DNA of 64,000 nucleotides from Patescibacteria group bacterium (GTDB taxonomy: Bacteria; Patescibacteriota; Microgenomatia; UBA8517), in contig AP024680.1 in NCBI GenBank assembly GCA_025999275.1, positions 684,522 to 748,521 of the forward strand, given 5' to 3'. The notes beneath the pieces are model-generated. The model had not been told where the DNA came from. It saw nothing but the letters and a program-made list of their open reading frames with translations, and searched no databases. The position numbers were made by a program, and so were the translations under genes. Position 1 is the first letter of the stretch. The number at the start of each line of letters is the position of its first letter. This document shows positions 3,328 through 37,021 of the stretch, in pieces.

Positions 3328-3331
3328 GCAA

Positions 3332-8654: not shown

Positions 8655-9569
8655 TCAAGGACCAGCCAATAACTTATCAACCGGAGGAAAAGGACCACAT
8701 GAATTTAAAACAGAAGCCTGCAACCCCATTTTTTCTAATCTTTTCAAAATACCTTGCCTATACCCTTCCAAATTCCCACTTTTGTATAGTGCAGTTATTT
8801 GTTTAACCTCGCCTTGCTCAGTTAAACCAAATATAATAGAAGCCACCCTTTTTGCACCAGGGACAGTTCTTGATTCAACTTCAACGGCTAGATATAAGGC
8901 ATGTGTACAACCCTCAATAATACCCGCTGCAGCCAAACAAATAATCTCTTTAGGCAAAGGAGAATTAGGCTGCAAGAAAGCGGCTTCAACTATAGTTTTT
9001 ATATACTCAGCAAGTTCAGGCCCCCTTCTTTCAATTGTATGTTTGTTCAACTCAATAAGTCTTAAAACTTCCGTACTTGATTTGGCAACGGCAATTGCAC
9101 TAGCGGTCCCAAGTAAAACTAACAGTGCTGTCTCACCAATAGGTGTAGGCTCAAGTAAAGCGGGTGGAGATCCCAGAGCAATAACACTTGCCAAAGAAGG
9201 ATCTAAATTATCTTTAACCAACTGACTTAGACTGGCAGGCAATTCTATAACCCTTTCTTCTCTTGGACCATAAGTTATTTGAACTTTATATTCTTTGGCC
9301 AAATCCTCTATACTGGGAAAATTAGAAGAAATAGCAATAGAAACATCGTCTCCTCCCAAAACACTCTCAACCTCTCTAAGGCTATTTTCCAATTTGTCTA
9401 TTGCTGTCGAAGTCTTTTTATCTAATGACGAAGACCCCGACAGGTTTTCTTCAGGCCTTTGCTGCTCAAATGCTTTAGGGGCACAACTAGCAACCAATGC
9501 AGCCCCACCAGTCAAAGCTAACAATTTCAAAAATTCTCTACGCGAGATTTTACTAATATTTTCTGACAT
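8655..9569 (-). CDS. Hypothetical secreted protein with twin-arginine signal
   Basis: N-terminus ISRREFLKLLALTGGAALVASCAP matches the Tat consensus S/T-R-R-x-F-L-K and ends in a lipobox-like ASC. Confidence 0.55.
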   Translation of the reverse strand: MSENISKISRREFLKLLALTGGAALVASCAPKAFEQQRPEENLSGSSSLDKKTSTAIDKLENSLREVESVLGGDDVSIAISSNFPSIEDLAKEYKVQITYGPREERVIELPASLSQLVKDNLDPSLASVIALGSPPALLEPTPIGETALLVLLGTASAIAVAKSSTEVLRLIELNKHTIERRGPELAEYIKTIVEAAFLQPNSPLPKEIICLAAAGIIEGCTHALYLAVEVESRTVPGAKRVASIIFGLTEQGEVKQITALYKSGNLEGYRQGILKRLEKMGLQASVLNSCGPFPPVDKLLAGP

Positions 9570-21028: not shown

Positions 21029-21037
21029 CTTTTAAAG

Positions 21038-21547
21038 ATGGAAAAAAATAAAACAAAAATAACAATAGCAATAATTGGAATGCTTATATTGGCAAGTATT
21101 GCCATATTTATGGCAATAAGACTCTACCAATTAAGACAGTCTAGCGTCTCCCCAAATGCACCAGAAAGCAAACCAGAAGCAGCAGGCAACAATACAATTT
21201 CTTGCTCTACCCTCACATTTTCAATTTCAACACCCACCCCAACACCAACATCTACCCCAACCTTGACAAATACTCCAAGACCAACAAATTCTCCTACTCC
21301 CACAATAACACCAACTCCTACTTCAAGTGTTGTTCCCACAATAACACCAACTCCTACTTCAAGTATAAGACCCACAAACACTGCTACCCCAACTCCCACA
21401 AGAACACCAATCGTTCCAACTTCTATTAATCAACCAACTCCAACTCTAGAAGCCTCTCTCCCTGAAGCCGGAGTGTCTTGGCCAACTATCCTAGGTGTAG
21501 CTGGAGGTGCAATAATGCTGATTATATCATTGCTACTTGCCTTATAA
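21038..21547 (+). CDS. Pro/Thr-rich surface protein with C-terminal LPEAG + hydrophobic tail (sortase-signal-like)
   Basis: 169 aa. N-terminal TM, long (T/P)n linker, C-terminus [30 protein letters not shown]. Confidence 0.45.
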
Positions 21548-21565
21548 GGGAGTATTTATTTTCTT

Positions 21566-22867
21566 TTAAGCAACTCTCTCCTTCAAAGCTTTATAGTACT
21601 TCTCTAAATAATCAAAAGCTAAATCCCAATGTTCCTCACCCATTCCAGAAAGAGCTTTGTTTCTCTCCATTTCAGCCAAAACTCGCAGATGAGCCGCCTT
21701 GTCAAATTGATATCTTGAGATTCTATATTCCTCAGCCAAAAGATCTTTAACCACATCTTCCGCCTCAACCGCACCAACAGGATCGGCAGTACTGTTAATC
21801 TTCTGCCATTTTTTAATTTGCAATGAAGTTACAAGATCAGGTTCAAAGGCAAGCTTTAAATTCTTTTTGATAAGTTTATAAAAGCGCTTTAAAGGTCTTT
21901 TTGCTGCCTCCCATTCATGTTTGTCCCCGCTTATCAAAGCTTCAACCAAATGTTTTGCCGCCTCTTTGGCTAATTTCTTAGAAATACCATATTGTTCTTT
22001 CAAGTATTCGATCACAAAATCACGAAATCTCATACCCTGTGGCACTTTTGAAAGCCTCCACCAAGAAAGTTCAAGTTTAGCAACTACTTCAGGCCGAAAG
22101 GTAAAATGACGCTCTTTGTCATTTCCCCCAAATCTTCTTCTGCGACGAGAATAATCAATAATTGCATCTTTTAGCTTTTCAGGAGTAAAATCTGGCAGAT
22201 GCTCCTGTTCAAAATAATATTCAGCATAAACCATCTGCCAGGGTAAATAACCGCTTGTTCTTTGCTCACCTGAAGTCCTAATAAACAAATCAGGATACGG
22301 ATAAGGCTGGTTTTTTGTATCAAGATAAGAGGCAAAAAGCTCCTCGTCTATTTCTTCAGGAGGAATCTTGTCAGAGACAATAGCCCTAACAGCGCGCAAT
22401 ATTTCATCTCTTCCTCCATAATCAAGAGCCAAATTCAATATATTTTTATCAAAATGAGCGGTTTCTTTTTCTATTTTTTCAAGAAGAGAGGCAACATCTT
22501 TAGGGAACCTATCTTTTCTTCCTAAATGGACTAGTCGAATCTTTTCCTCCTTAGCCTCCTTAAGAAACTCTTTCAAACCTATTCTAAGAATATCTAAAAT
22601 TGCATCAATTTCCTCTTTGGGGCGAGACCAATTTTCAGTAGAAAAAGCCCAAATAGTAAATGTATGAACGCCCATTTCGCGAGCAGCTTTGGCAACTCTT
22701 TTAATCGCCTCATAACCAGCCTTATGCCCTTCCCATGGCTTAAGACCACGACAGCGCGCCCAACGACGGTTCCCATCCAAAATCATTGCAATATGATCCG
22801 GAACTTTAGTACCCTTAGGCAAACTTAAATCAAATTTGTCTAATCCAATTTTCATCTTTAAAACCAC
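21566..22867 (-). CDS. uppS: Isoprenyl transferase (undecaprenyl-diphosphate synthase family) with ~190-aa C-terminal extension
   Basis: HIAMILDGNRRWA, FSTENWSRP, LDYGGRDEI motifs occupy the first ~240 aa. The ORF then continues 190 aa with no recognised domain. Confidence 0.8.
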   Translation of the reverse strand: MVLKMKIGLDKFDLSLPKGTKVPDHIAMILDGNRRWARCRGLKPWEGHKAGYEAIKRVAKAAREMGVHTFTIWAFSTENWSRPKEEIDAILDILRIGLKEFLKEAKEEKIRLVHLGRKDRFPKDVASLLEKIEKETAHFDKNILNLALDYGGRDEILRAVRAIVSDKIPPEEIDEELFASYLDTKNQPYPYPDLFIRTSGEQRTSGYLPWQMVYAEYYFEQEHLPDFTPEKLKDAIIDYSRRRRRFGGNDKERHFTFRPEVVAKLELSWWRLSKVPQGMRFRDFVIEYLKEQYGISKKLAKEAAKHLVEALISGDKHEWEAAKRPLKRFYKLIKKNLKLAFEPDLVTSLQIKKWQKINSTADPVGAVEAEDVVKDLLAEEYRISRYQFDKAAHLRVLAEMERNKALSGMGEEHWDLAFDYLEKYYKALKERVA

Positions 22868-22931
22868 GCTAATAATTATAGCACGACAATAAAAAAGTTA
22901 TCTAAATAAAAACTTTACTGCGTAGAAAATT

Positions 22932-23924
22932 TTAATTGGGTAAGGAAACATTTATTTCCCAAGAAGGAATCCAAAGATCCTTGAAATCAATTCCCTCTTT
23001 AATTCCAACTGGATTTAGGCCCCTTTCAATAAGACCTTTAATAATTTTTTCAACAGCCAAAACATCACAATAACGCGTAGAGTGGCTAAGAACTATATCC
23101 CCATTTCTGGCACCTTTTACAACCCTAGAGACAGTTTTCTCAATCCCATCAAGACCGCCGCTTTCCAAACTCCAAATAACTGTTTGCATACCAAAGCAAG
23201 AGGCTACATCTACCACCATATTATTCCTACTCCCATACGGAGGTCTAAAAAAACGAACCTGATAGCCCGGCAAAATGTCCCAAGAAACCTCAAGAAAATG
23301 GCGAAGTTGCTCATAAACACCCTGTCTACCAAGCGAAGTCAACTCATCATGATTCCAACCATGACACCCTAAATCAAGACCTTTTGCCACAATCTCTCTG
23401 ACAATATCAGGATGCCTTTCTAACCACTCTCCTGTTATAAAAAAGGTGGCCTTAGCATTATATAGATTTAGTGCTTCCAATATCTGTCTAATGTTTTCTT
23501 CCTTTCCTCCATCATCATAAGTCAACATCACAACCGGCCGAGAAGTGTCACCTTTACTAATTACATGTTTTCTTAAAAATTCTTTATCCTCTTTGGTTAT
23601 AAGCGACAAATACTCATTAAGTGAATAACCTTCTAAACTAAAAATAAAATTCTGTTCGCTATTCTCAGAAGTTAAGTCTTTTGCTTCAATTGTTGTTTCT
23701 GTTGGAGTCAAAGTTTGTGTTGATGTTTTTGTGGGAGCAACTGTCGAGGTAGAAGTATTGTTAGGTTTAGGTGTTTCAGTAGAAATAGGATCACCTGTTT
23801 CAGCTGTTGAAGAAATTGATTCTAATGATTTATCAAGACCACAGGAAGCAGCACCCAAAGCAAGAAGTCCTAATCCCGCTTTTTTCAAGAATTCTCTTCT
23901 ACTAATTTTCCTTTCTGTACTCAC
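22932..23924 (-). CDS. Tat-signal lipoprotein with polysaccharide deacetylase (CE4/NodB) domain
   Basis: Shared N-terminal module (V)STERKISRREFLKKAGLGLLALGAASCG. C-terminal LTYDDGG...HGWNHD motifs of NodB-type deacetylases. Start taken as GTG 23924, as in the paralogs. Confidence 0.65.
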   Translation of the reverse strand: MSTERKISRREFLKKAGLGLLALGAASCGLDKSLESISSTAETGDPISTETPKPNNTSTSTVAPTKTSTQTLTPTETTIEAKDLTSENSEQNFIFSLEGYSLNEYLSLITKEDKEFLRKHVISKGDTSRPVVMLTYDDGGKEENIRQILEALNLYNAKATFFITGEWLERHPDIVREIVAKGLDLGCHGWNHDELTSLGRQGVYEQLRHFLEVSWDILPGYQVRFFRPPYGSRNNMVVDVASCFGMQTVIWSLESGGLDGIEKTVSRVVKGARNGDIVLSHSTRYCDVLAVEKIIKGLIERGLNPVGIKEGIDFKDLWIPSWEINVSLPN

Positions 23925-23934
23925 AGTAACTGGT

Positions 23935-23963
23935 ATTATAGGATATTTATCAAATCCAATCAA
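23935..23963 (-). promoter_or_regulatory. TTGATT-17-TATAAT promoter, 10 nt upstream of the GTG start (near-leaderless)
   Basis: Minus-strand read: ttgatt ggatttgataaatatcc tataat accagttact GTG. The same arrangement occurs at 34057-34085 and 35407-35435 for the paralogs. Confidence 0.5.
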
Positions 23964-24001
23964 GAGGATGCAAAAGTTTTTTATAATAAATAATAAAGCC
24001 T

Positions 24002-24544
24002 CTACCTTCTCTCAAGGATTAAGACACAATTGTGGGTTATAAAACTACAACTACTATCTATGCAGGAACCTTCAAAAGCAAGTTTGTCTTTTCCATTACT
24101 ATTTTTTAAAAACTCTAAAACCTTTTCAAATAACTCTGTCCTTTGTATAAAATCCTTACCTTCAGGTAATTGATAACTAGAAAAGACAATATTTTCACAA
24201 GCTATATTACTATTAAAAATTTCTCCTTTTAAGTTCTCGGGAGAAATCACTCTTAAAGAAAGTGCAGTATTATCGTTCTGAACCCCCAAAATCTCAAATC
24301 TTAAAACATCGTCCATACCAATTTGATTCTCGGAAGATGGGGGCTGTGTACCTTGAGAATATTGAATGTTTTGAGAAGATTCTTCTTTTTTAACCAATTG
24401 AGTATTATTAGAGCTCTCCCCCTCACCCCTATTAGTTCCTAGTGAATTATTGTTCTTCTTTAGATTAAAATACAAAAACAACTCTCCCACCACAATCAAA
24501 AACAATGAAAAAAATAAAGCTATTAAAATAAAGTTTTTCTTCAT
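24002..24544 (-). CDS. Small secreted 4-Cys protein (paralog of 32403-32972)
   Basis: 180 aa. N-terminal TM, Ser/Gln-rich linker, C-terminal domain I.C...ELFxK..FL.....L.F.G.C.D..C..I...C.L shared with the paralog. Confidence 0.5.
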   Translation of the reverse strand: MKKNFILIALFFSLFLIVVGELFLYFNLKKNNNSLGTNRGEGESSNNTQLVKKEESSQNIQYSQGTQPPSSENQIGMDDVLRFEILGVQNDNTALSLRVISPENLKGEIFNSNIACENIVFSSYQLPEGKDFIQRTELFEKVLEFLKNSNGKDKLAFEGSCIDSSCSFITHNCVLILERR

Positions 24545-24715
24545 TTACAATAAAGTTTAGTATTATAAATAATAATTTACAATGTTAATAGCCAAAATTG
24601 CAATAACTTCAAAGATAGATATCTTTCTTTTAAACCATCACCCTGCATAATTTCATATCTCAAAAAGACAATCGGAAAAAATCAAAATTAAAAACTTACA
24701 AATTTATATTCATTA

Positions 24716-26318
24716 TTTCCCTCTTCTTTAATAAAAGATTGTTTTAATTAATTTAATATAGGAGGAGTTGGTCCTGGAATAAAACCTCCTGGTGGTAGAG
24801 TTGGAGCTACGGGCACATCTGGAGGAAGAGTCGGTCTAGGAGTTGGTGTTGCTGGAGAAATTTCTTGGGGATTGGTTTCTCTCCAGTTGAACCTTCTTTC
24901 TTTAAGACTATTTGGTATTTGAAAAACAAAAGATGGATTAAAATTAAACACCTCAGATGGGTTGTTGTTGTCTGTAAGAGATCTTTGTAGTCTCACTCCT
25001 GAAAGAGAAACTACAGAACCATTAACATTAAGGGCAAAAGTATCCTGTCTTGAACCTAAAGTGCCTGTATTAAATGTTCCATTGGTTAGATAAATTCCTG
25101 ATATTGAAGAAACACTGGGGGAAATACTAATATTACCACTTGTTATAAACATTAAGAAATTGTTGCTGTTAACATTAATATTTGAATTTATGTTCAAATT
25201 TCCATCTACGAAGATTACATACCTTCCGCTTGAGATATTTATAGGACCATTGATAGTTAGACTACCTTGATTTAGACTATTCTTTTTGATTAGATACCAA
25301 GAATAGTTGTCACTGGTTGATATTGAGGGATTACCAAGATTGCTAAGAGAAGTTATGGATATATTACCTGATGTTACACCTACATTATTATTTTCCCAAT
25401 CATTTTTTACTCCTGATGGGACACGATTAAAGAAATAATTGTAATTAAAATTACTAAAAGATGAAATATCAGTATTAACAAGCCAACCGGTTTCAGAGAC
25501 TCTTCCAGCACCAAAAGAGAAAGATCCAGAATATACAGGAATACCAGGGGTAATAGCTCCTACTCTAAGATTAAAGTAGGTAGTTTGAGTGGGCAAAATA
25601 GATGAAATATTACCTCTTGTTATTACATCAGCGTTGTTAACCTGCCACCAAGAGCGAGGAATTATAGTTACATTCCCAGTTGCTTGACAGGTAAAACTAG
25701 GATTGGATGAAACAGTAGCAATTGCATTATATGTATAAGTACCTGTACCAGTTGTTGCTGTAACAGTAGTTGTAAAAGGAGATGTGGAAGTTGTTGAGGG
25801 ATTAAAGCTTAAAGCAGAAGAGTTGGAAGGAGTAAAAGATATTCTTGATATGTTCCCCACCAAATTAATTACTTGAGGAGGTGTCAAAATAGATGGCGTA
25901 ATTGTTCTAGAATCACCTAATCCATTAAGGGTTATGCTACCAACTGAAATTTGACAAGGTAAAAAGTAATGCCACCAAAGATCAGTATATCCATTAGCAG
26001 GAGAATTAACATTAACAGAAGAACCAACTGTAGGAGGATTACCATGACAATTGGTGGCGTTATAACATAAAGTATAACCTACAGCATATCCTGAAGGAAC
26101 TGAGACACTAACTGTATGATTTCCAACCACATTAGTACCAACAAAATAGTAAGGATTATTGGTATTAGGAGAACCGCCATCCAAATATACTGTTTGAGAG
26201 GAAGCCGGAGATGCAGCTGCATTACCAGGATAAATTACCTTGTAACCTTGAATGGTTGATGTTGGAGGAGGAGGTGTAGGTGTAGGGTCTGGTTGGCTTC
26301 CGCCTCCCCCACCACCAC
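24716..26318. repeat. Copy 1 of a ~1.6-kb near-identical direct repeat (partner at 30472-32096)
   Basis: Identical by eye from tttccctcttctttaataaaag to ggcttccgcctcccccaccaccac, apart from one synonymous change (gatgtgg vs gacgtgg near 25781/31539) and an 18-bp indel in the Pro/Thr-linker repeats. Confidence 0.9.
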
Positions 26319-26649
26319 AATCACAAGCAACAACTTGTGTATCACGAATATATCCATCACAACAAACCTGATTTTTATAACAACCGGGCGGCCTTACATT
26401 ATCATAATAAAGACATGGACCATTATCACACCAATTAGTACAACTATTGCTAACCGACCATGCACAAACGGGAGGGTCAACACTCCTATTACAAGTATAA
26501 GTACAATGACTATAACCATCACAACAAGATGCGCAATCGCTATAAGAAGAACAATAATAAGAGCATGCTGCTAAAGACAAAGAAGAAAAACTAAAAGAAA
26601 ATAAATAAAAACAAACAAATATGAGACAGAAATATAAAAACTTACGCAT
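24748..26649 (-). CDS. Large secreted surface protein: variable Cys-rich N-domain + conserved Ser/Thr/Asn-rich beta-rich domain + Pro-rich tail
   Basis: 633 aa. Signal peptide, ~85-aa domain with ~18 Cys, G6-SQPxPTP linker, then ~520 aa identical to the paralog 30504-32393 (NISITS/NGNISISP-type repeats suggest a beta-helix), ending PATPTPRPTLPPDVPVAPTLPPGG. Confidence 0.6.
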   Translation of the reverse strand: MRKFLYFCLIFVCFYLFSFSFSSLSLAACSYYCSSYSDCASCCDGYSHCTYTCNRSVDPPVCAWSVSNSCTNWCDNGPCLYYDNVRPPGCYKNQVCCDGYIRDTQVVACDCGGGGGGSQPDPTPTPPPPTSTIQGYKVIYPGNAAASPASSQTVYLDGGSPNTNNPYYFVGTNVVGNHTVSVSVPSGYAVGYTLCYNATNCHGNPPTVGSSVNVNSPANGYTDLWWHYFLPCQISVGSITLNGLGDSRTITPSILTPPQVINLVGNISRISFTPSNSSALSFNPSTTSTSPFTTTVTATTGTGTYTYNAIATVSSNPSFTCQATGNVTIIPRSWWQVNNADVITRGNISSILPTQTTYFNLRVGAITPGIPVYSGSFSFGAGRVSETGWLVNTDISSFSNFNYNYFFNRVPSGVKNDWENNNVGVTSGNISITSLSNLGNPSISTSDNYSWYLIKKNSLNQGSLTINGPINISSGRYVIFVDGNLNINSNINVNSNNFLMFITSGNISISPSVSSISGIYLTNGTFNTGTLGSRQDTFALNVNGSVVSLSGVRLQRSLTDNNNPSEVFNFNPSFVFQIPNSLKERRFNWRETNPQEISPATPTPRPTLPPDVPVAPTLPPGGFIPGPTPPILN

Positions 26650-26706
26650 GAAAGTTGCAAGATCAGCTTATTACAAGAAAATTTTATAGTCAATAGTCAA
26701 ATGAAG

Positions 26707-28356
26707 CTAATTTTTGGGTTTAATATCTCTTTGACGAAAAGGATTCCAAGGAGAAATAAATGCTAAAAGCAGCTGATTTCCTAATTCTTCTGGAGCCTTA
26801 TTTTCATTAAACCATTGTTGACAAAGAGTTCTTCTTTTTTGCACCTCTTCTTCATTCCGGTAATGTGTATTTATCATATACCCTTCGTACCTATTATAAT
26901 CATACCAATTATATGTTTTTCCATTATAAGCTGGCGAAACACCAATTAAAGGGTCAATCCTAACTTTAAAATTAGCCAGGGCAGAAACCATATTTAAAAC
27001 AAAAGGATCTTCGTAATTCTCAAAAGCAAAATGCAATATTGAAATACTTTTGTCTGGATTAAGAAAAGCAACTCCATATACTAAAAGTCTTGTTTCAGAA
27101 TCTACATCAACAAAGGATAAAGATAGAAGTCTAAAAGGAACAGCTTCAGGGTGATCAAGAAAGTAATCAGATATAATAGGATCGCCTGTAACAGGATCAG
27201 GAAGAAGAGCATGGATCCCTTCTATAAAACTATAATCATAATAATCCATGAGGTTTGGGGGTATTGTAGATTCAGTAAAAGGAGGAATTTTACCCTCCTC
27301 CATTAATTGTCTTTCTCTTTTAAGAAGCCTGCCTGAGGTAATGTCTTCTAATGAAATTGTAGGGATTTCTTTAAGATGTTCACCGAGCCTCCAATTACCA
27401 GATTCTATTCCACTGAAATTGTAAAATACTTCAAGAGGAACTTCTGTAGGAGTTGGTGTTTCTGTTGGTCTTGGTGTTGGAGTAAGTGTAGGAATGGGGG
27501 TAGGGATTTCAATAGTTACTGTTGGAGTAACGGTTGTAATATCTGGTGTAACAACTGCAGATGAAGCTTCTTGAGACTGGTTTTGATAAATAGTGGTTGA
27601 CTTTTCAACTATTGCAGGAGGTTGAGATAAAGGAACACATCCTGATAATACAGATGAAACAACTGAGGCTGCAAGAAGAACTCTTCGAGGATTTCTTTTT
27701 CCATCTTTTTCTTCCTCTGGTATTGCAAAATGAGCTATTCCTCTTCCTCCTTCTGTTGAAAGCTTTTCTCGATGAGAGACTATTTTATTTACTGCCCTTT
27801 GTAAATTGCATAATTCTCTTGACAAGGCTTGCGGGTCAACTTTTCTTTCTTGTTGATAACTTGATAAAAGTAAATTCAATATTCTAGAAACACCTTTTTT
27901 GTAATCAACTCTAATGATTCCCTCAATCTCTCCTAAATGCCTTTTGTCATCAGGATTATCACCCCAAGGTTTTCCATTCATTCCCTCAATTCCAACAACA
28001 CCAACAGTTAATTTTATTTTCTTTCCATCAACAATATTAGATTTAGATTTGTTAAATGATTCTAAAGCTCTACCAATTCTTCGCCCCAGAAGATAATCTA
28101 TTTCTTCTTTTGTGTAAACTTCATGAAGATAACTTGATCTTTCAGACTTAGTACTCCTTTTGGATTCAGCATCTTGATCTTCTTTGGGCAAACCCGCTAA
28201 ACCTCGAAGAAAAGGCTTTATTCTGCTTAAATCACCTCTTTTTTCTCCCCCTTGTTTTTCATTTTCAATTGAATTTAAGACATCAATAGCCCAATTGGAG
28301 ATTTCACTTGATCTTCCACCTGCTTCCAAACCATTTTTGATTAATTCTATTGACAT
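26707..28356 (-). CDS. Hypothetical bitopic membrane protein (cytoplasmic N-domain, TM, Thr/Pro linker, extracellular domain)
   Basis: 549 aa. TM at RRVLLAASVVSSVLSGCV. No family recognised. Confidence 0.5.
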   Translation of the reverse strand: MSIELIKNGLEAGGRSSEISNWAIDVLNSIENEKQGGEKRGDLSRIKPFLRGLAGLPKEDQDAESKRSTKSERSSYLHEVYTKEEIDYLLGRRIGRALESFNKSKSNIVDGKKIKLTVGVVGIEGMNGKPWGDNPDDKRHLGEIEGIIRVDYKKGVSRILNLLLSSYQQERKVDPQALSRELCNLQRAVNKIVSHREKLSTEGGRGIAHFAIPEEEKDGKRNPRRVLLAASVVSSVLSGCVPLSQPPAIVEKSTTIYQNQSQEASSAVVTPDITTVTPTVTIEIPTPIPTLTPTPRPTETPTPTEVPLEVFYNFSGIESGNWRLGEHLKEIPTISLEDITSGRLLKRERQLMEEGKIPPFTESTIPPNLMDYYDYSFIEGIHALLPDPVTGDPIISDYFLDHPEAVPFRLLSLSFVDVDSETRLLVYGVAFLNPDKSISILHFAFENYEDPFVLNMVSALANFKVRIDPLIGVSPAYNGKTYNWYDYNRYEGYMINTHYRNEEEVQKRRTLCQQWFNENKAPEELGNQLLLAFISPWNPFRQRDIKPKN

Positions 28357-28491
28357 AGATTAAATAAAAGCAGTGTTTATATAGCTATTAGATACTATTA
28401 TAGGCTAATATTAAAAATTGTCAATACCGCCACAAGTATAATTAAACTATCAAAAGCAAACACCACTATTACTTATCCTTAATCACCAAAA

Positions 28492-29289
28492 TCAAAAAGA
28501 TATTTCAGTGCCAGTCTTGAAATTAGATTTTGTAATAGATTTATAGAGGTTGTCTTTGATTTTTCCGTTCATAATATAAACCTTTGTTCCTCCTTTGGCC
28601 ATCTTTAAACTTTCCACTACTTTATGTAACATTCCACCAGTTACATCCGTGTTCTCTGATCCAAAAATAGATTTTCTGAGAATAGGAAAATTTTTAGGAG
28701 TAATCCTTTTTATAACTTTCCCCTTTTCATCGTAAACACCATCAGTAACCCCGCATTGAATAACCTTCTTTACCCTGTATCCTTTTTCCTTAAATTTGCT
28801 AAATAAATTATCAAGAACCTCTTCTCCAGAATAAATACAACAACCATATTTATCATCCAAAATAACATCCCCAAAAACCACTGGAACAATACCCATCTCA
28901 ACGGCTTTAATAATAGGTTCTACAAAAATAGATTTAAGAGATTTAGCTTGCGCAAAAATAAAAGAAGATGGAACAAAAGAAAGGCAATTAATCCCTTTAT
29001 TCAAAAACACCTTATTAACTATCCTATTTATAGCAATCGCATCCTGCTCAACAAGGCACAAACCCCTAATCCCCCTTTTATCTTTTATTCCATCGGCTGT
29101 TTTATACTTACTGGCCAGGGTATGACCAAAAGAACCACTCCCATGAGACACAACCAAATGGAAACCAAGATCCAAAGACTTTTTAATTTCTAACGCCAAA
29201 CGGTTAATAACCCTAATACGAGGAGTATAAGGCTTGCTTTTATCTGTAATTAAACTACCGCCAAGTTTAATAAAAACTAAATCAAACAT
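28492..29289 (-). CDS. Isopentenyl phosphate kinase (amino-acid-kinase fold)
   Basis: FIKLGGSLITDK, HGSGSFGH, GDVILDDKYG, TDVTGGM match archaeal-type IPK motifs. Start taken at MFDL, since the ORF-track start 29328 would overlap the upstream gene. Confidence 0.75.
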   Translation of the reverse strand: MFDLVFIKLGGSLITDKSKPYTPRIRVINRLALEIKKSLDLGFHLVVSHGSGSFGHTLASKYKTADGIKDKRGIRGLCLVEQDAIAINRIVNKVFLNKGINCLSFVPSSFIFAQAKSLKSIFVEPIIKAVEMGIVPVVFGDVILDDKYGCCIYSGEEVLDNLFSKFKEKGYRVKKVIQCGVTDGVYDEKGKVIKRITPKNFPILRKSIFGSENTDVTGGMLHKVVESLKMAKGGTKVYIMNGKIKDNLYKSITKSNFKTGTEISF

Positions 29290-29299
29290 AAAAGGTTGG

Positions 29300-30370
29300 C
29301 TAGTAAGAACGATTGGTAATAAAATCAACCAAGGTTAAAATGTAAGAACGATATGGTTCAAGGCGAATGAAGTCAAGATGCTGATCAAAATAATCCCTAG
29401 ATTTTTGTTTCCACTTTAAGGCGAGATCTTTTGCATAATCAATTGCACCATATTCTTTCATCATTTTCACAACCCATAGAACCTCATCTTCAGTTTTTTC
29501 CTCCCTACTTTTTCTCAAAATAGAAATAAGTTTCTTTTTATCGCTCAACGAAGCTTTTTTCAAAAGATACCCTAAAATAACTGTAACTTTCCCCTCATAA
29601 ACATCTCCTGCAAATTCCTTTCTACCACCAAAATCACTTGTAACATCAAGAATATCATCTGTTAACTGAAACGCACGCCCTAGATAAACACCAAACTTAG
29701 CCAATTTATCAAGCTGCTGATTATTACCATCGGCAATTATTGCCCCCAGTCTCATTGGGCAGGCAATTGTGTAATAAGAAGTCTTGCCATCAGCCACAAA
29801 ATACCAATCATTATCATCAAATTCCATCCTTTTATCTTTTGACCATCTTATCTCTGTCATCTGTCCTAAAGTCGTACGCATAAGCTGAGTGTAAAATTCA
29901 TTAAGGATCCTAAAAACCTTTTCTTCATCTAAAAATCTACGCGAATCAAAAAGCGCCCTCCACATGGCAACATGAAGCGCATCTCCTGCATTAACTGCCA
30001 AAGGGATGTTGTAAATTTTATGCAAAGAAGGAAACCCTCGCCTTTTAGGAGAATCATCTTCCAAATCATCATGAATTAAAAGCCACTCCTCTGAAATCTG
30101 CATAGCCGAAGCTACAGGAACAACATCTTCAAGTTTAGCTCCCATCGCCTGAGCAGTTAGAGATAAAAGTGTAGGCCTCAGGTACTTTCCTTTTCTTTTA
30201 GGATACTCAGAAATTATCTCCTGGAAAAAATTTTTTTCACTATCATATTTACTCGGAATCTTAAATGATGACGGAAACATAGGAGTTTTTAGATATCTCA
30301 AAACTCTTGGGTAAATAAAGTCACGATAGTAAGAAAGAATCCCCTCAGCAGATTTTAGCTCTTTCGCCAT
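29300..30370 (-). CDS. Trans-isoprenyl diphosphate synthase (polyprenyl synthetase family)
   Basis: First Asp-rich motif LIHDDLEDDSPKRRG and second motif FQLTDDILD. Confidence 0.8.
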   Translation of the reverse strand: MAKELKSAEGILSYYRDFIYPRVLRYLKTPMFPSSFKIPSKYDSEKNFFQEIISEYPKRKGKYLRPTLLSLTAQAMGAKLEDVVPVASAMQISEEWLLIHDDLEDDSPKRRGFPSLHKIYNIPLAVNAGDALHVAMWRALFDSRRFLDEEKVFRILNEFYTQLMRTTLGQMTEIRWSKDKRMEFDDNDWYFVADGKTSYYTIACPMRLGAIIADGNNQQLDKLAKFGVYLGRAFQLTDDILDVTSDFGGRKEFAGDVYEGKVTVILGYLLKKASLSDKKKLISILRKSREEKTEDEVLWVVKMMKEYGAIDYAKDLALKWKQKSRDYFDQHLDFIRLEPYRSYILTLVDFITNRSY

Positions 30371-30471
30371 TTTTAAATTATAAACACAAAAAATATATAA
30401 GGCAAGAAAAACTAAATATTTAATTTAGTAATTTTAAATTAACTTTAGATATCAAACACTTAAACCAAAAA

Positions 30472-32096
30472 TTTCCCTCTTCTTTAATAAAAGATTGTTT
30501 TAATTAATTTAATATAGGAGGAGTTGGTCCTGGAATAAAACCTCCTGGTGGTAGAGTTGGAGCTACGGGCACATCTGGAGGAAGAGTCGGTCTAGGAGTT
30601 GGTGTTGCTGGAGAAATTTCTTGGGGATTGGTTTCTCTCCAGTTGAACCTTCTTTCTTTAAGACTATTTGGTATTTGAAAAACAAAAGATGGATTAAAAT
30701 TAAACACCTCAGATGGGTTGTTGTTGTCTGTAAGAGATCTTTGTAGTCTCACTCCTGAAAGAGAAACTACAGAACCATTAACATTAAGGGCAAAAGTATC
30801 CTGTCTTGAACCTAAAGTGCCTGTATTAAATGTTCCATTGGTTAGATAAATTCCTGATATTGAAGAAACACTGGGGGAAATACTAATATTACCACTTGTT
30901 ATAAACATTAAGAAATTGTTGCTGTTAACATTAATATTTGAATTTATGTTCAAATTTCCATCTACGAAGATTACATACCTTCCGCTTGAGATATTTATAG
31001 GACCATTGATAGTTAGACTACCTTGATTTAGACTATTCTTTTTGATTAGATACCAAGAATAGTTGTCACTGGTTGATATTGAGGGATTACCAAGATTGCT
31101 AAGAGAAGTTATGGATATATTACCTGATGTTACACCTACATTATTATTTTCCCAATCATTTTTTACTCCTGATGGGACACGATTAAAGAAATAATTGTAA
31201 TTAAAATTACTAAAAGATGAAATATCAGTATTAACAAGCCAACCGGTTTCAGAGACTCTTCCAGCACCAAAAGAGAAAGATCCAGAATATACAGGAATAC
31301 CAGGGGTAATAGCTCCTACTCTAAGATTAAAGTAGGTAGTTTGAGTGGGCAAAATAGATGAAATATTACCTCTTGTTATTACATCAGCGTTGTTAACCTG
31401 CCACCAAGAGCGAGGAATTATAGTTACATTCCCAGTTGCTTGACAGGTAAAACTAGGATTGGATGAAACAGTAGCAATTGCATTATATGTATAAGTACCT
31501 GTACCAGTTGTTGCTGTAACAGTAGTTGTAAAAGGAGACGTGGAAGTTGTTGAGGGATTAAAGCTTAAAGCAGAAGAGTTGGAAGGAGTAAAAGATATTC
31601 TTGATATGTTCCCCACCAAATTAATTACTTGAGGAGGTGTCAAAATAGATGGCGTAATTGTTCTAGAATCACCTAATCCATTAAGGGTTATGCTACCAAC
31701 TGAAATTTGACAAGGTAAAAAGTAATGCCACCAAAGATCAGTATATCCATTAGCAGGAGAATTAACATTAACAGAAGAACCAACTGTAGGAGGATTACCA
31801 TGACAATTGGTGGCGTTATAACATAAAGTATAACCTACAGCATATCCTGAAGGAACTGAGACACTAACTGTATGATTTCCAACCACATTAGTACCAACAA
31901 AATAGTAAGGATTATTGGTATTAGGAGAACCGCCATCCAAATATACTGTTTGAGAGGAAGCCGGAGATGCAGCTGCATTACCAGGATAAATTACCTTGTA
32001 ACCTTGAATGGTTGATGTTGGAGGAGGAGGTGTAGGGTCTGGTTCTGGTTCTGGTGTGGGTTGGCTTCCGCCTCCCCCACCACCACTATACCTACT
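30472..32096. repeat. Copy 2 of the ~1.6-kb direct repeat
   Basis: See 24716-26318. Offset between copies is 5756 bp. Confidence 0.9.
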
Positions 32097-32393
32097 TTCA
32101 CAACTGGTATCGCATGCAAAAGTATGGGAATAATAACCTGGGCCCCCATTACAAAGCAAATAATGCTCGTAATAATTATAATAGGTTCTCCCATAACAAC
32201 CTTGGCCATTTTGATTGTTATAGCATACTTCTTCGGGTAATCTTGAACCGCAATATAGCATAGGATCTGATGTCCTCCAACAAGTCGCCCAGACATCTTT
32301 AATAGTCAAGAATGAAAAAGTAGCAAACAAAAACAAAATAAGATAAATTCTCAAAAACAAATTTGACAAAATTGTTTTTTCTTTGTATTTCAT
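30504..32393 (-). CDS. Large secreted surface protein, paralog with a different Cys/Tyr-rich N-domain
   Basis: 629 aa. The N-terminal ~110 aa (WATCWRTSDPMLYCGSRLPEEVCYNNQNGQGCYGRTYYNYYEHYLLCNGGPGYYSHTFACDTSCESRYS) is unrelated to copy 1. The rest is identical. Confidence 0.6.
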   Translation of the reverse strand: MKYKEKTILSNLFLRIYLILFLFATFSFLTIKDVWATCWRTSDPMLYCGSRLPEEVCYNNQNGQGCYGRTYYNYYEHYLLCNGGPGYYSHTFACDTSCESRYSGGGGGGSQPTPEPEPDPTPPPPTSTIQGYKVIYPGNAAASPASSQTVYLDGGSPNTNNPYYFVGTNVVGNHTVSVSVPSGYAVGYTLCYNATNCHGNPPTVGSSVNVNSPANGYTDLWWHYFLPCQISVGSITLNGLGDSRTITPSILTPPQVINLVGNISRISFTPSNSSALSFNPSTTSTSPFTTTVTATTGTGTYTYNAIATVSSNPSFTCQATGNVTIIPRSWWQVNNADVITRGNISSILPTQTTYFNLRVGAITPGIPVYSGSFSFGAGRVSETGWLVNTDISSFSNFNYNYFFNRVPSGVKNDWENNNVGVTSGNISITSLSNLGNPSISTSDNYSWYLIKKNSLNQGSLTINGPINISSGRYVIFVDGNLNINSNINVNSNNFLMFITSGNISISPSVSSISGIYLTNGTFNTGTLGSRQDTFALNVNGSVVSLSGVRLQRSLTDNNNPSEVFNFNPSFVFQIPNSLKERRFNWRETNPQEISPATPTPRPTLPPDVPVAPTLPPGGFIPGPTPPILN

Positions 32394-32402
32394 AATTTAT
32401 TA

Positions 32403-32972
32403 CTAAGGCAAACTAAGATAACAATCCCTGTTTATCTCCTCACAATTATTATCACCACAAAGACCAAAAAATAAAATGGGCTCGCCTAACGATCCTTGTA
32501 GATAGAGTTTAATTTTTGTAAATAGTTCAGATTTATTTATACTCGTTAAGTTTTCACTGGAACGAGATTTAAGTTTTATGTCTGAATCTGCACAGGTTAT
32601 TTTACTTTCAAACATTCTACCTTCCCATGAATTGGGCCAAACTACAATTAACCCAAGGGTTTCTTTTTCAGTATTTACTGACTCGACTTTAAAAACTGCA
32701 GAATTTACAGAAGGATTAAAATTAGTAGTCAACTCAGCTGGAAGCGGAAGTGGTTCTGCTGATGGTGTAGGTTCTTGGTTTGATAAAGCTACTTTATTAT
32801 TACTGCTACTACTATCAGGCTTTCTTAAAACTAAATTGGGAAAACCATTTAGACGAACAAAAAACAGTAATTCAACAACAATCACTAAAGCTAAGACAAC
32901 AAGCACACCTACCAAAATACCAGAAGTTTTACTCATCAATATCAGATTAGAAAAGAATTCCTTGTCTGTCAA
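32403..32972 (-). CDS. Small secreted 4-Cys protein (paralog of 24002-24544)
   Basis: 189 aa, TM + linker + C-terminal ...TCADSDIKL...ELFTKIKLYLQGSLGEPILFFGLCGDNNCEEINRDCYL. Confidence 0.5.
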   Translation of the reverse strand: MTDKEFFSNLILMSKTSGILVGVLVVLALVIVVELLFFVRLNGFPNLVLRKPDSSSSNNKVALSNQEPTPSAEPLPLPAELTTNFNPSVNSAVFKVESVNTEKETLGLIVVWPNSWEGRMFESKITCADSDIKLKSRSSENLTSINKSELFTKIKLYLQGSLGEPILFFGLCGDNNCEEINRDCYLSLP

Positions 32973-32981
32973 GAATGAATT

Positions 32982-34046
32982 TCACTTATTCTCAGAAAAA
33001 TTATTAGAAGAATCGGGAGAAAAAATAACACCACCAATTTGGTTTCCAACTCTCTTAAACGAGACGTAATTCAACAATGAGTAAAGATCTTCTCCTGACA
33101 TCCCAACTAAAAATGCCAAACTCTCATAAGAAGAATCAAAAGGGCCTTCAGGTTTAATTTGACTATTCGGATAAACTATAAAAACAAAATTATCGGGATA
33201 AACAGGATATTTTTTATTATCTTTTACACCACAAAAAAATGATAGAATAAAGTTGCCCAATTTCTCACCTTTTGGGTCATAAACGGTAATGGAAATGCCG
33301 CCTGTACGATCAGTTAAATTAGCACTAAACAAAAACTCAGATAAATAATAGCCAGTACCATTTTTATAATCTCTAGTTATATGTTGTTGCAACCATCTAT
33401 CATAAAAACTTATACTTGGAAAAGTTTCTAAAGGAGTTCCATCTACTTTAATGGCATATTCAACCAGCCTAGTAAAAGCCTCAACATAAGCCTCCATTTT
33501 ACCCTCCTCATCCAAAGTTTCCGAAATTAAAAAGGCCGGAAACTCTTTTCTTTGCAAAGCTCCATCCTCTTCTTCATAAACCACCTCTATAATTCCACCC
33601 TCCCAAGGTCTTTTAAATTCATTGCCATCATATACATACCATGCCCATTTTTCTTTGGTGTCATCACGATAGATAATTAGTTCAGGATTTATGGCACTGA
33701 TACTACCCTTCTTGAAGGTTCGTCCATCTTCTGCAGTGTAAGTTTCAGGAGCTAGTCGAAAACGCTCTTCAGGAGTAATTGAATGCCAATCTACAGGAGT
33801 TGGGGTTTCTGTTGGTGTAGGAGTTGGTGTTTCTGTAGGTTTAGCTGTTGGTGTAGGTGTTTCTGTAGGTGTAGGAGTATTGTTAGGTTTAGGTGTTTCA
33901 GTAGAAATAGGATCACCTGTTTCAGCTGTTGAAGAAATTGATTCTAATGATTTATCAAGACCACAGGAAGCAGCACCCAAAGCAAGAAGTCCTAATCCCG
34001 CTTTTTTCAAGAATTCTCTTCTACTAATTTTCCTTTCTGTACTCAC
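32982..34046 (-). CDS. Tat-signal lipoprotein paralog B (unknown C-terminal domain)
   Basis: GTG start. N-terminal 151 aa identical to paralog C. SRREFLK twin-arginine motif, LAASCG lipobox, Thr/Pro linker. Confidence 0.55.
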   Translation of the reverse strand: MSTERKISRREFLKKAGLGLLALGAASCGLDKSLESISSTAETGDPISTETPKPNNTPTPTETPTPTAKPTETPTPTPTETPTPVDWHSITPEERFRLAPETYTAEDGRTFKKGSISAINPELIIYRDDTKEKWAWYVYDGNEFKRPWEGGIIEVVYEEEDGALQRKEFPAFLISETLDEEGKMEAYVEAFTRLVEYAIKVDGTPLETFPSISFYDRWLQQHITRDYKNGTGYYLSEFLFSANLTDRTGGISITVYDPKGEKLGNFILSFFCGVKDNKKYPVYPDNFVFIVYPNSQIKPEGPFDSSYESLAFLVGMSGEDLYSLLNYVSFKRVGNQIGGVIFSPDSSNNFSENK

Positions 34047-34343
34047 AGTAACTGGTATTATAGGCTACTTATTATATTGGGTCAAATAGGTGTAAAATTA
34101 TACAAAATTTAACCAATTATTTTAAATTTGGCATAAAATTGCAAAATTTAAGGAAAGGATTAAATGAAATTATAAGAGAAATAATACTTTACTTTTTAAT
34201 ATTTGGAATACACAAAGTTTTTGACTATGATAAAAGTAAATTCTTGAATCAAAAACAAGTGGTATACAAAATCAATATGATAAATTAAGAAATCTTAAAA
34301 ATCATTTTTAATTTACAAAAACAAGACAATTGTCAATAAATTA

Positions 34344-35396
34344 CTAAGGTTTTGGTTGAGAATCTGAAGTAAAAGACTGCAACTCCAATGCACTTAAACC
34401 TATATAATCAATTAAAGACTCAAGGTCTTTTCCTGAAACACCAACTAAGAAAGCTACGTCTAAATCAGAAGGAAGAAATTCTCCTTCTCCCCCTCTCAAC
34501 CAGTAACTACCATTGGGATAATAAATACGTACAAACTTATAAGGGTACACAGGGTTTAGATTGTTTTCTGACACACCGTGAGACATAAGAAGAATAAATT
34601 TCCCCACCTTCTCTCCATGAAAAGAAACAGTAAATGAAGATCCAATTATCAAATCTAATGGTGGATGATTAACAAAGTTTTCAGGACCCAATCTACCATC
34701 TTTAACAAAAGAATCTAAGTTGGATTTTTTCGTAAGAAAATTATTATTAAAATCAAGAGAATCTTTGAAAAAAAGTGGGGTATGACTTTTATTAACCCCA
34801 TATTCGATAAGTTTTATTAGAGCCTCAATTGTCGCTTGTTTTTTCTCATCATCACTAGCATCATCTTGTAGATAAACCATAAAAGCAGGACCTTCTAGTC
34901 TTTCCAAAGTTCCATCACCTCTACGAAAAACCATTTCTAAAACCCCACCCTCCCAAGGTCTTTTAAATTCATTGCCATCATATACATACCATGCCCATTT
35001 TTCTTTGGTGTCATCACGATAGATAATTAGTTCAGGATTTATGGCACTGATACTACCCTTCTTGAAGGTTCGTCCATCTTCTGCAGTGTAAGTTTCAGGA
35101 GCTAGTCGAAAACGCTCTTCAGGAGTAATTGAATGCCAATCTACAGGAGTTGGGGTTTCTGTTGGTGTAGGAGTTGGTGTTTCTGTAGGTTTAGCTGTTG
35201 GTGTAGGTGTTTCTGTAGGTGTAGGAGTATTGTTAGGTTTAGGTGTTTCAGTAGAAATAGGATCACCTGTTTCAGCTGTTGAAGAAATTGATTCTAATGA
35301 TTTATCAAGACCACAGGAAGCAGCACCCAAAGCAAGAAGTCCTAATCCCGCTTTTTTCAAGAATTCTCTTCTACTAATTTTCCTTTCTGTACTCAC
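34344..35396 (-). CDS. Tat-signal lipoprotein paralog C (C-terminal domain homologous to but diverged from B)
   Basis: First 469 bp including the promoter are identical to B (33595-34062 vs 34945-35412). The C-terminal halves share GEK(L/V)G(N/K)FIL...NPVYP...AFLVG(M/V)SG(E/K)DL(Y/E)SL. Confidence 0.55.
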   Translation of the reverse strand: MSTERKISRREFLKKAGLGLLALGAASCGLDKSLESISSTAETGDPISTETPKPNNTPTPTETPTPTAKPTETPTPTPTETPTPVDWHSITPEERFRLAPETYTAEDGRTFKKGSISAINPELIIYRDDTKEKWAWYVYDGNEFKRPWEGGVLEMVFRRGDGTLERLEGPAFMVYLQDDASDDEKKQATIEALIKLIEYGVNKSHTPLFFKDSLDFNNNFLTKKSNLDSFVKDGRLGPENFVNHPPLDLIIGSSFTVSFHGEKVGKFILLMSHGVSENNLNPVYPYKFVRIYYPNGSYWLRGGEGEFLPSDLDVAFLVGVSGKDLESLIDYIGLSALELQSFTSDSQPKP

Positions 35397-35509
35397 AGTA
35401 ACTGGTATTATAAGATATTTATTATACTAGGTCAAGTAAAAATAAGACAAATAAACCCATACCCGCTTAAAATTACAAATACACAGGGTCAAAAGACAAC
35501 TTGAAAAGA

Positions 35510-35760
35510 CACCTTGAGGGTGTACTAGCTTGGCACCTAACTGATTAACTCAAAAGTCAAAAGGCAAAACTCAAAATTACAATTCAAAATTTAAAAATAT
35601 TTAATTAAATTTAATTAAGGAAAACTTTTGACTTTTAACTTGTAGTTTTGACTTTTGAATTTTAACTTTTGAATTATTTTTATTCATAAATTATAAATCT
35701 TAAACCTATATTCCTTTCCCCTTCCTATCAGCACTGGCTACTGTTTTTAAAGTTTAGATA
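35510..35760. repeat. Partial copy of the MITE-like element family (internal AT-rich hairpin part)
   Basis: caccttgagggtgtactagcttggcacctaactgattaactcaaaagtcaaaaggcaaaactcaaaa...tttgacttttgaattttaac is near-identical to 52225-52400. Confidence 0.45.
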
Positions 35761-35791
35761 TTAGAGGTTAGAATTTAGGATTTTAACTTCC

Positions 35792-36022
35792 CTATTCCTG
35801 ATTACTTTGAATTCCAAGAAGCCAAAGAACCGCTTCTTTTTTGTAGCGGCGGTCACCACGAGAGTTGATACGAATTGCAGGAAGCTTGCCCCTTTTGCCC
35901 CAGCGTTTGATAGTCAAAGGAGAAACCCTAAGAAGATCAGCCACCTCACGAACTGTTAGAAGATCAGGTAAATCCTCAAGCTTTATTTTTTTCTTTTTCC
36001 TTGGCGCTTTATCTTCAGGCAT
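35792..36022 (-). CDS. Excisionase-family (Xis/MerR-like) helix-turn-helix DNA-binding protein
   Basis: LLTVREVADLLRVSPLTIKRWGKRGKLPAIRINSRGDRRYKKEAV fits the excisionase-family HTH pattern. 76 aa. Confidence 0.55.
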   Translation of the reverse strand: MPEDKAPRKKKKIKLEDLPDLLTVREVADLLRVSPLTIKRWGKRGKLPAIRINSRGDRRYKKEAVLWLLGIQSNQE

Positions 36023-36121
36023 TTTTGATATATTTTTAACCCTTAGATTATACTTTTATATAATCTCAAGGCTAAAGCCTAACTTTAGTTAATCAGACAA
36101 TATCAAAGTCAAACATTCCTG

Positions 36122-37021
36122 TCAAGAGCCTTTTTTAAATTTATAGATAGAAACTTTAACTGGAAAAACAAAAACTGCCCTAAAAATGCGACCAAGCCTC
36201 TTTGGCTGAACCAAAAGCCGCCAAAGCCATTCTAAGCCTGCTTTTTCCAAAAAACGAGGAGGATACTTCAGTCTTCCTGAAACATAATCAAAAGTTCCAC
36301 CCACCACCATCATTCCACCCACATCAAGCTTGTCTTTGTTTCTCCAAATCCACTTTTCCTGCTTTGGAGCACCAAACCCAACAAAAACAAGGTGAGGCCT
36401 AATTTTATTAATAGAATTTATTATTTCCTTCTCCTTTAATCTTTCCTTATCATCAAAAGGCTTGCCTTCCCTGTCAAGACGCGGCCCGCTAAAAGCAAAA
36501 ATATTAACCTTTTTATAATTACCTTTCAAAGCGCCAGCTGCTTTTTGAGCGCTTTGCTTATCATCGCCAATTAAAACAACTCTAAATTTCTTCTTATTTG
36601 CCAAGAAAATTAAATCCTCAAAAAGCCGCCGACCCTTTATTACATTCAAACCAGAAAAAAGCTTATCCTTACTAAACAATGTCAAAAAGAAAACTTTAAG
36701 CCATCCAAAAATCAAAGCCAAAAACCTAAGTGGCAAAAAAGAATAATTAGGCAAAGAGAGAAAGAGGTTAGATTGAGCAAGACCAATACCATCAGGAATA
36801 GCAAAATCAGCAGAATTTAAAATCAAAGCCAATTCCCTATCTTTCTGAGCCTCAAGAACTATCTCTGGGTTAGGAGTAACTATATAAAAAGGCTTGAAAA
36901 TAGGCGATTTAGCCTCAAAAAGAGCCAATTTAACCCTAACCTCTCTTAGCACTCTATTCCTTGAAATGCTATCTAAGGCTATATCTAATATTTTGGCCTG
37001 TTTTTGGTCTTTTTCTATCAT
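36122..37021 (-). CDS. WecB/TagA/CpsF-family glycosyltransferase
   Basis: IVTPNPE, FVGFGAPKQEKWI, MMVVGGTFDYVSG, GLEWLWRL motifs. Confidence 0.7.
   Translation of the reverse strand: MIEKDQKQAKILDIALDSISRNRVLREVRVKLALFEAKSPIFKPFYIVTPNPEIVLEAQKDRELALILNSADFAIPDGIGLAQSNLFLSLPNYSFLPLRFLALIFGWLKVFFLTLFSKDKLFSGLNVIKGRRLFEDLIFLANKKKFRVVLIGDDKQSAQKAAGALKGNYKKVNIFAFSGPRLDREGKPFDDKERLKEKEIINSINKIRPHLVFVGFGAPKQEKWIWRNKDKLDVGGMMVVGGTFDYVSGRLKYPPRFLEKAGLEWLWRLLVQPKRLGRIFRAVFVFPVKVSIYKFKKGS

Follow-up and report, generated by a model that had tools for sequence, protein, structure and literature searches.

The DNA analysed here (the window) is a 64,000-nt stretch of a Patescibacteria genome (Candidate Phyla Radiation, CPR) with 36.9% guanine plus cytosine (GC), and contains three minus-strand genes, here named A, B and C, which begin with the same 5' sequence and encode putative lipoproteins. 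All three open reading frames (ORFs) exist with the coordinates, lengths and shared 5' sequence given in the initial annotation of this DNA. Gene A (22932..23924; 330 aa from its GTG) encodes a lipoprotein with a twin-arginine (RR) signal, a Ser/Thr/Pro linker and a CE4 polysaccharide deacetylase domain. Gene B (32982..34046; 354 aa) encodes an RR-signal lipoprotein in which a Pro/Thr linker precedes a mature domain belonging to a rare, uncharacterised family, while gene C (34344..35396; 350 aa) is its tandem paralog. The B and C proteins are 100% identical to the hypothetical proteins KatS3mg088_736 and KatS3mg088_737, respectively, which are encoded on a contig of 785,860 bp, and the KatS3mg metagenome-assembled genomes (MAGs) derive from a long-read hot-spring sediment metagenome (PMC9671151).

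The shared 5' tract and the proteins behind it

Ungapped comparison of the three loci, anchored on the GTG codons of A, B and C, reveals identity tracts with sharp edges. The 468 nt from -16 to +452 (33595..34062 in B and 34945..35412 in C, both on the minus strand) are 100% identical in genes B and C, which then diverge as had been proposed, to about 83% over the following ~50-100 nt and to background identity thereafter. Genes A and B are 100% identical from -18 to +171 (189 nt; copy in A at 23754..23942, minus strand) and A and C from -16 to +171 (187 nt), which agrees with the common stretch of about 190 bp that had been described for A ahead of its CE4 domain. The copy in A comprises the -10 box, the GTG, the signal peptide, the lipobox cysteine (Cys28) and the first 29 mature residues, and the junction in A falls at the start of the repetitive linker codons. 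The identical tract of B and C stops at codon 151, which lies 67 residues into the mature domain and not at a module boundary. A 56-nt probe of the module has exactly three matches in the window, where none is expected by chance, and the module is absent as exact DNA from the genome, viral and metagenome contig collections covered by exact scans.

Synonymous divergence (dS) follows these tracts in steps. Between B and C it is 0.009 over codons 1-151 and 1.35 from codon 152 to the end, where the ratio of nonsynonymous to synonymous divergence (dN/dS) is 0.51, and between A and B it is 0 over codons 1-57 and 1.45 over the linker codons 58-95. The mirror image of the B/C pattern is seen in two neighbouring surface-protein genes of 633 and 629 aa, with a dS of 1.05 in the first 110 codons and 0.007 in the other 523. 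In their 3' parts these two genes share 1619 nt with 98.8% identity (24715..26321 in the 633-aa gene and 30471..32089 in its homogenised 629-aa paralog, both minus strand), while their N-terminal Cys-rich regions have diverged. As synonymous differences are gone over the 468 nt shared by B and C and the very next codons are saturated, recent recombination, not selection on the protein, is indicated.

Two types of cargo lie behind the shared 5' sequence, not three. Gene A matches PF01522 over the full model (1-124/124; E 2.4e-30), and its translation contains all three CE4 NodB motifs TYDDG, HGWNH and RPPYG. Genes B and C had been credited with different C-terminal domains, but their proteins align along the full length, with 65% identity in 335 aa (E 1e-107). 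The C-terminal halves are homologous, and both proteins belong to one rare cargo family. The mature domain of this family has no Pfam or NCBIfam match, and its structure prediction gave a model of moderate confidence (predicted local distance difference test score, pLDDT, 70) with no neighbour in the PDB. An exhaustive search with the mature domain of B against 1.84 billion representatives found only five clusters. Homologs in the B/C family share the Pro/Thr linker followed by the motif VDW..ITPEERF.LAP, while their signals are of two kinds. P0016 has an RR-lipobox signal (ERISRREFLKR...SACG), P0017 and P0018 have lipoprotein signals of the general secretory (Sec) type (...LAACS), and P0004, the homolog that led to the related genome L002, has a signal starting with MGKLER, of Sec-lipobox type. 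The family is thus RR-type in the window and in P0016 and Sec-type in L002, P0017 and P0018; as predicted from these sequences it changes between signals of the twin-arginine translocation (Tat) and Sec types, and in two related genomes it shares its signal with a neighbouring gene.

Gene B is the first gene of a tight operon which continues with genes for a 189-aa protein and the 629-aa surface protein, with gaps of 9 nt between the genes. The 189-aa protein (32403..32972, minus strand) is a small membrane-anchored protein with the C-terminal motif G.C.D..C..I...C, and its homologs directly follow B/C-family genes in the related genomes L002 (L002:6096-6812 and 11284-11898) and L009 (L009:7757-8260). 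A 180-aa paralog in the window (24002..24544, minus strand; 28% identity, E 1e-7) lies directly upstream of A. Because the partner gene follows a B/C-family gene in three genomes, the B/C-family lipoprotein and the small protein are likely to form a functional pair.

Predicted signal peptides and promoter-like sites

The encoded common N-terminus of A, B and C is MSTERKISRREFLKKAGLGLLALGAASCG, and contains a twin-arginine motif and a putative lipobox, followed by a Thr/Pro linker, as had been described. The motif S8-R-R-E-F-L-K14 is a full match to S/T-R-R-x-F-L-K near the N-terminus, TIGR01409 (TAT_signal) scores 18.7-18.9 bits in the three proteins (18.9 in A) against a cutoff of 16.7, and Cys28 is present in each. 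The h-region AGLGLLALGAAS has a mean Kyte-Doolittle value of 1.70 and is thus less hydrophobic than the Sec-type signals of the window and of the homologs (2.25-3.03). In the lipobox L-G-A-A-S-C28 the residues at -1 (Ser) and -2 (Ala) fit, and all homologs keep a cysteine at the equivalent place, the putative site of lipidation. Tat-dependent lipoproteins are known from Streptomyces. CE4 enzymes bind a metal ion, which would give A a reason for export in the folded state. The Tat-dependent lipoproteins of haloarchaea have the same order of twin-arginine motif and lipobox cysteine, and the RR-to-Cys spacing of 17 residues in the module lies within their TatLipo range of 12-21 (PMC2945643); Tat dependence was tested experimentally in haloarchaea, whereas for A, B and C it is predicted. 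TatA and TatC have been reported in the CPR classes Microgenomatia, Paceibacteria and Saccharimonadia (PMC9166423). Taken on these sequence features, A, B and C are probably exported via Tat.

Several points weigh against this assignment. The lipobox AASC has Ala at -3 instead of Leu, Val or Ile, which is allowed by broad PROSITE-type rules and falls outside the strict consensus [LVI][ASTVI][GAS]C. No TatA/TatC-like ORF, no lgt and no lspA were found within the 64 kb, the lack of tatA and tatC having been remarked on already in the initial annotation. Moreover, translation from an internal TTG would yield MKKAGLGLLALGAASC, which could plausibly act as a Sec-type lipoprotein signal, and in P0003 this TTG was chosen as the start by one gene caller. 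The RR motif may accordingly be unused, with translation from the TTG producing ordinary Sec-dependent lipoproteins and the RR-coding stretch serving as 5' untranslated region, an alternative to which the Sec-type signals of P0017 and P0018 and the missing tat genes lend some weight. It is nevertheless rather unlikely, as the S-R-R-x-F-L-K motif is in frame and perfect, the TIGR01409 score exceeds the cutoff, no Shine-Dalgarno (SD) sequence precedes the TTG in a genome that scarcely uses SD sequences, and the GTG has a -10 box 10 nt before it, as have nine other genes. The RR motif also follows an unambiguous ATG start in P0016, in the deacetylase ortholog of L002 and in the ORF at 8655..9569.

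The last of these (minus strand) is an independent fourth RR-lipobox ORF (MSENISKISRREFLK...LVASC), unrelated to the trio, with a PF10518 (TAT_signal) match at E 0.0013 and 19.0 bits, below the Pfam cutoff of 22.7. All four lipobox ORFs recognised in the window are thus of RR type, three of which share one module, so that they amount to only two independent cases. This composition hints that the organism may route its lipoproteins mainly via Tat.

Each of the three genes is preceded by a promoter-like site on the minus strand, namely TTGATT-17-TATAAT for A (23935..23963; 10/12) and TTGACC-17-TATAAT for B (34057..34085; 11/12) and C (35407..35435; 11/12). The three promoters had been described as identical, which holds for the arrangement TTGAyy-17-TATAAT with the GTG start 10 nt downstream of the -10 box, and does not hold for the sequence as a whole. 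Only the -10 box is inside the identical tract, since the identity of B and C begins within it, the 17-nt spacers of B and C differ at 5/17 positions, and the -35 box of A (TTGATT) differs from that of B and C (TTGACC). The short distance from the -10 box to the GTG, which had been noted for the trio, is the general layout of this genome: an exact TATAAT ends 4-20 nt before the start in 12 of the 51 window genes, where 0.5 would be expected at random positions, so that nine other genes have the layout of A, B and C. An SD-like GGAG, GAGG or AGGA lies upstream of 2 of the 51. Many genes of this organism thus appear, from their 5' sequences, to be expressed from leaderless or near-leaderless mRNAs. 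Caution is due because the promoters were called by their match to a consensus in AT-rich DNA, with 69 sites in the region where 52 are expected. As the organism seems to set promoters directly against start codons, any 5' conversion tract would carry the promoter along with the signal peptide.

Origin of the identical tracts

The 5' identity of A, B and C most probably stems from homologous recombination (gene conversion or unequal crossing-over), as read from the sequences, with a unit that comprises the -10 box, the leaderless-type GTG, the RR lipobox signal and the Pro/Thr tether. Genes B and C would be old tandem paralogs in which the 5' 468 nt have been re-homogenised. Gene A would be an unrelated CE4 deacetylase gene whose own RR signal was overwritten by a B/C-type 5' end, through which it gained the promoter and the linker. 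Tat targeting was not brought to A by the module, because the L002 deacetylase ortholog already has its own RR signal. A constant export module recombined onto variable cargo had been suspected at this locus. This view stands in that a 5' unit moved between unrelated mature parts, the CE4 domain of A and the B/C family, and fails for B and C, which are paralogs; their tract ends within the mature domain and therefore reflects gene conversion between these paralogs and no purpose-built export cassette.

Proteins that carry the shared unit would receive the same transcriptional input, be translated from a leaderless GTG, be exported as folded proteins via Tat, be lipid-anchored at Cys28 and stand off equally from the membrane. 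A flexible tether, of which about 29 residues are shared and which is longer in B and C, would hold the domain away from it. As B heads its operon, the shared promoter of B would also drive the large Cys-rich 629-aa surface protein.

The locus is part of a cell-envelope gene cluster. On the minus strand, a WecG-type glycosyltransferase, an HTH_17 protein, C, B, the 189-aa protein, the 629-aa protein and a polyprenyl synthase are followed by an AA_kinase-family protein, a 549-aa protein, the 633-aa protein, the 180-aa protein, A and an undecaprenyl-diphosphate (UPP) synthase. The trio does flank the duplicated 633-aa and 629-aa surface-protein genes, as had been stated. The locus is chromosomal, lying between housekeeping and cell-wall genes, and its synteny is kept in L002.

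The syntenic stretch of L002 has the order WecG, HTH_17, polyprenyl synthase, deacetylase, UPP synthase, followed by genes for proteins of 175, 238, 312, 624, 406 (the B/C homolog), 204 and 665 aa. Its 312-aa and 406-aa lipoprotein genes are unrelated to each other and have a common 5' module from -33 to +254 with 81% identity, which begins at the -10 box and encodes the Sec-type lipobox signal MGKLER... plus a linker; a truncated third copy follows the 665-aa gene. In their 3' parts the 624-aa and 665-aa genes share 1777 nt with 95.6% identity. Between the two genomes, the 633-aa and 624-aa proteins are clearly orthologous in their N-terminal Cys-rich parts, whereas the homogenised 3' parts (633/629 and 624/665) are more alike within each genome than between genomes, and the surface-protein pairs of both genomes are thus cases of partial-gene concerted evolution. 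The L002 deacetylase (266 aa), which starts with MERINRREFLK, lacks the Pro/Thr linker; its gene has no promoter of its own and is separated by 11 nt from the polyprenyl synthase gene ahead of it. Two further relatives contain recent-looking repeats. In L009, two units at 99.7% identity, each with a 344-aa B/C-family gene and the small partner, stand in tandem (L009:5054-8155). L010 has a recent tandem duplication of a 247-aa RR-lipoprotein gene (L010:6592-8826), the two copies being described as identical and also given as 99.7% identical, and this family is unrelated to B/C except for the RR-lipobox signal and the Pro/Thr linker. By comparison of these sequences, partial gene conversion between paralogs at this locus is frequent in at least two genomes.

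Two considerations tell against this account of recombination, namely that the direction of transfer from B/C to A is deduced from one outgroup genome, and that the sequence stems from a MAG built on long reads, where nearly identical repeats can be made too uniform by polishing. Three other explanations of the identity are to be considered. The first is a programmed variation system, in which the identical 5' tracts would be substrates for swapping or amplifying surface-protein bodies behind one expression site, like Mycoplasma vsa/vlp or Neisseria pilE/pilS. The copies are indeed tandem direct repeats, tandem duplication recurs in relatives, and a population variant of the unit (contig L001, discussed below) diverges only in the middle of the cargo domain (74-94% identity) with its flanks 100% identical. 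The vsa, vlp and vsp systems of Mycoplasma likewise combine a conserved 5' end and lipoprotein signal with variable surface parts in wall-poor or reduced-genome bacteria, and rely on site-specific inversion or promoter slippage plus silent cassettes. Such features were not found in the window, where no recombinase ORF, no inverted sites or invertible-element repeats and no promoterless silent cassettes were seen; each of the three co-oriented copies has its own promoter-like site and an intact ORF. The variable parts have a dN/dS below 1 (0.43-0.51), and the tract boundaries differ by pair, as general homologous recombination predicts. Programmed variation is consequently an unlikely source of the identity.

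The perfect identity could also be an artefact of assembly or polishing, with repeats collapsed or homogenised in the long-read MAG, given that multi-mapping short reads can wipe out small differences between repeats. This is very improbable, because L001, a MEGAHIT contig assembled independently from another sample, carries the module joined to both B-type and C-type flanks and departs from it at 1 of 469 nt, because the tract ends differ between A and B/C, and because L002 contains a comparable module pair whose copies have diverged to 81%. Least probable of all is selection on the nucleotide sequence itself, for an RNA or DNA regulatory element over the first ~190-470 nt, since the near invariance of the module in the second population sample (L001) is outweighed by the lack of any Rfam match in 21000-37500 at E <= 0.1, the unequal tract lengths (189 and 468 nt), the 81% conservation of the L002 copies in the same region and a dS step from 0 to saturation within one ORF, which is a signature of recombination. 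Homologous recombination remains the preferred explanation.

Several other features of the window were recorded. The 549-aa ORF (26707-28356, minus strand) resembles a fusion of two genes that are separate in L002, those for the 175-aa protein and for the 312-aa lipoprotein, the latter aligning with residues 308-537 at 40% identity (E 1e-46). What was formerly a signal and lipobox, RRVLLAASVVSSVLSGC, lies inside this ORF near residue 230, and a true gene fusion, a frameshift or a misassembly could each account for it. Short ORFs of 77, 118, 53 and 122 aa at 15137-16557 (minus strand) look like RimK/ATP-grasp fragments, for which intact genes exist in the syntenic L002, and could be pseudogenes or long-read frameshift errors. 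A dispersed AT-rich intergenic repeat, TTTTGACTTTTGAATTTTAACTT, has six matches at four intergenic sites with <=3 mismatches (0.02 expected), namely 35546-35676, 19420-19442, 40266-40309 and 52349-52371; the copy upstream of gene C forms an imperfect inverted repeat with 56-nt arms and has no Rfam match in the scanned region. A gene for a Y1 transposase of IS200 type (PF01797, according to the L012 gene table) is located at 56334-57113 (plus strand) within a secreted-protein gene cluster.

A B/C repeat unit in contig L001 and known precedents

Contig L001 is a 4444-bp MEGAHIT contig from a different European Nucleotide Archive (ENA) sample (ERZ27239171), in which a low-GC segment (1086-2452) is flanked by DNA of 54-64% GC (1-1085 and 2453-4444). 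This segment corresponds exactly to one B/C repeat unit of 1350 bp in circularly permuted form. It consists in order of the spacer upstream of B (100% identical to the window), the module, a mosaic C-like body and the C-downstream spacer (100%). Both ends of the unit map to adjacent window positions near 34240 (34229-34246; caagaa-tttact-tttatc), and the unit is thus opened within the C-B spacer (34047..34343, minus strand).

The flanks of L001 encode a tyrosine integrase and a TnpB-type protein. Integrases 87-94% identical to that of L001 lie on contigs with ParA, primase and helicase genes; two such contigs come from different samples and are both 14,718 bp long, which makes them look like plasmids. 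The closest relatives of the L001 integrase on catalogued plasmids are from Chloroflexota and Cyanobacteria (49-55% identity). Upstream of the integrase gene, the intact relatives have a -10 box followed by the palindrome TGAGAA-N6-TTCTCA. In L001 the unit is inserted exactly in the palindrome spacer (TGAGAA-TAGTA|A-TTCACA), with a perfect TTGACA-17-TATAAT promoter on one side and the ATG of the integrase on the other. The C-B spacer of the window resembles the palindrome at the crossover (CAAGAA-TTTACT-TTTATC).

Two interpretations of L001 were rejected. An integron gene cassette is discounted on the features of the site, as the junctions TGTGAA|TTTACT and CAAGAA|TTACTA lack a GTTRRRY core, the unit has its own promoter, and the insertion is in the TGAGAA-N6-TTCTCA palindrome. 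An ordinary assembly chimera is discounted because both junctions are centred in the integrase palindrome and enclose just one repeat unit. This single contig suggests that CPR DNA and a foreign plasmid underwent site-specific recombination, and two readings of it remain: either a circle popped out between direct repeats and was then caught by the plasmid integrase, or the plasmid integrated into a CPR tandem array of which the assembler collapsed the identical units. Either implies that CPR DNA and the plasmid of a distant high-GC organism were in the same cell.

A broader and tentative proposal, which is possible and falls well short of probable, is that in these leaderless-type CPR genomes a portable promoter/start/signal/tether unit of ~130-190 nt is exchanged repeatedly by neighbouring envelope genes and can switch a family between Sec and Tat, that direct repeats make the gene unit excisable, and that L001, in which the unit is permuted just as expected of a popped-out circle, physically records DNA exchange of the CPR organism with another phylum, possibly its host.

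The closest precedent for the shared 5' sequence is the 'upstream homology box' paralogs of Borrelia burgdorferi, the erp (ospE/ospF/elp) genes, which conserve the promoter/operator, the leader and the first mature residues while the rest of the ORF is diverse and reshuffled by recombination (PMC10016077). The likeness is that A and B/C have 187-189 nt of common 5' sequence on independent bodies, one a CE4 domain and the other a family without Pfam or PDB match. The erp loci, 6-12 in number, are carried by multiple cp32 prophage plasmids of a spirochete and have Sec-type leaders. In the CPR bacterium, by contrast, the copies number three, lie on the chromosome and combine a twin-arginine leader with a Pro/Thr tether, and their cargo comes from just two families. 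As the two systems have no sequence homology, the likeness is an analogy.

Concerted evolution by gene conversion is known for bacterial paralogs such as the tuf genes, the rRNA operons, Treponema tpr and Neisseria opa. The locus resembles these cases in the sharp-edged tracts of full identity within diverged genes and in copies that are closer within a genome than orthologs are between genomes. It differs in that the tract also crosses between non-homologous genes, from B/C to A, which is domain shuffling.

The mechanism of recombination and both signal types are already well known, and current concepts are unchanged; what is new is the Patescibacteria host lineage, the combination with leaderless-type promoters, and the occurrence of one cargo family on Sec- or Tat-type units in related genomes. 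The 5' module itself is of moderate to low interest, and the unit captured in L001 is the most unusual observation of the analysis, which, if genuine, could link the CPR organism to organisms exchanging DNA with it. The locus offers a clean, datable example of how reduced-genome Patescibacteria would diversify and co-regulate their surface proteins, with general recombination moving a compact promoter/signal/tether unit and homogenising parts of paralogs, and it leads to the prediction that this lineage exports lipoproteins via Tat.

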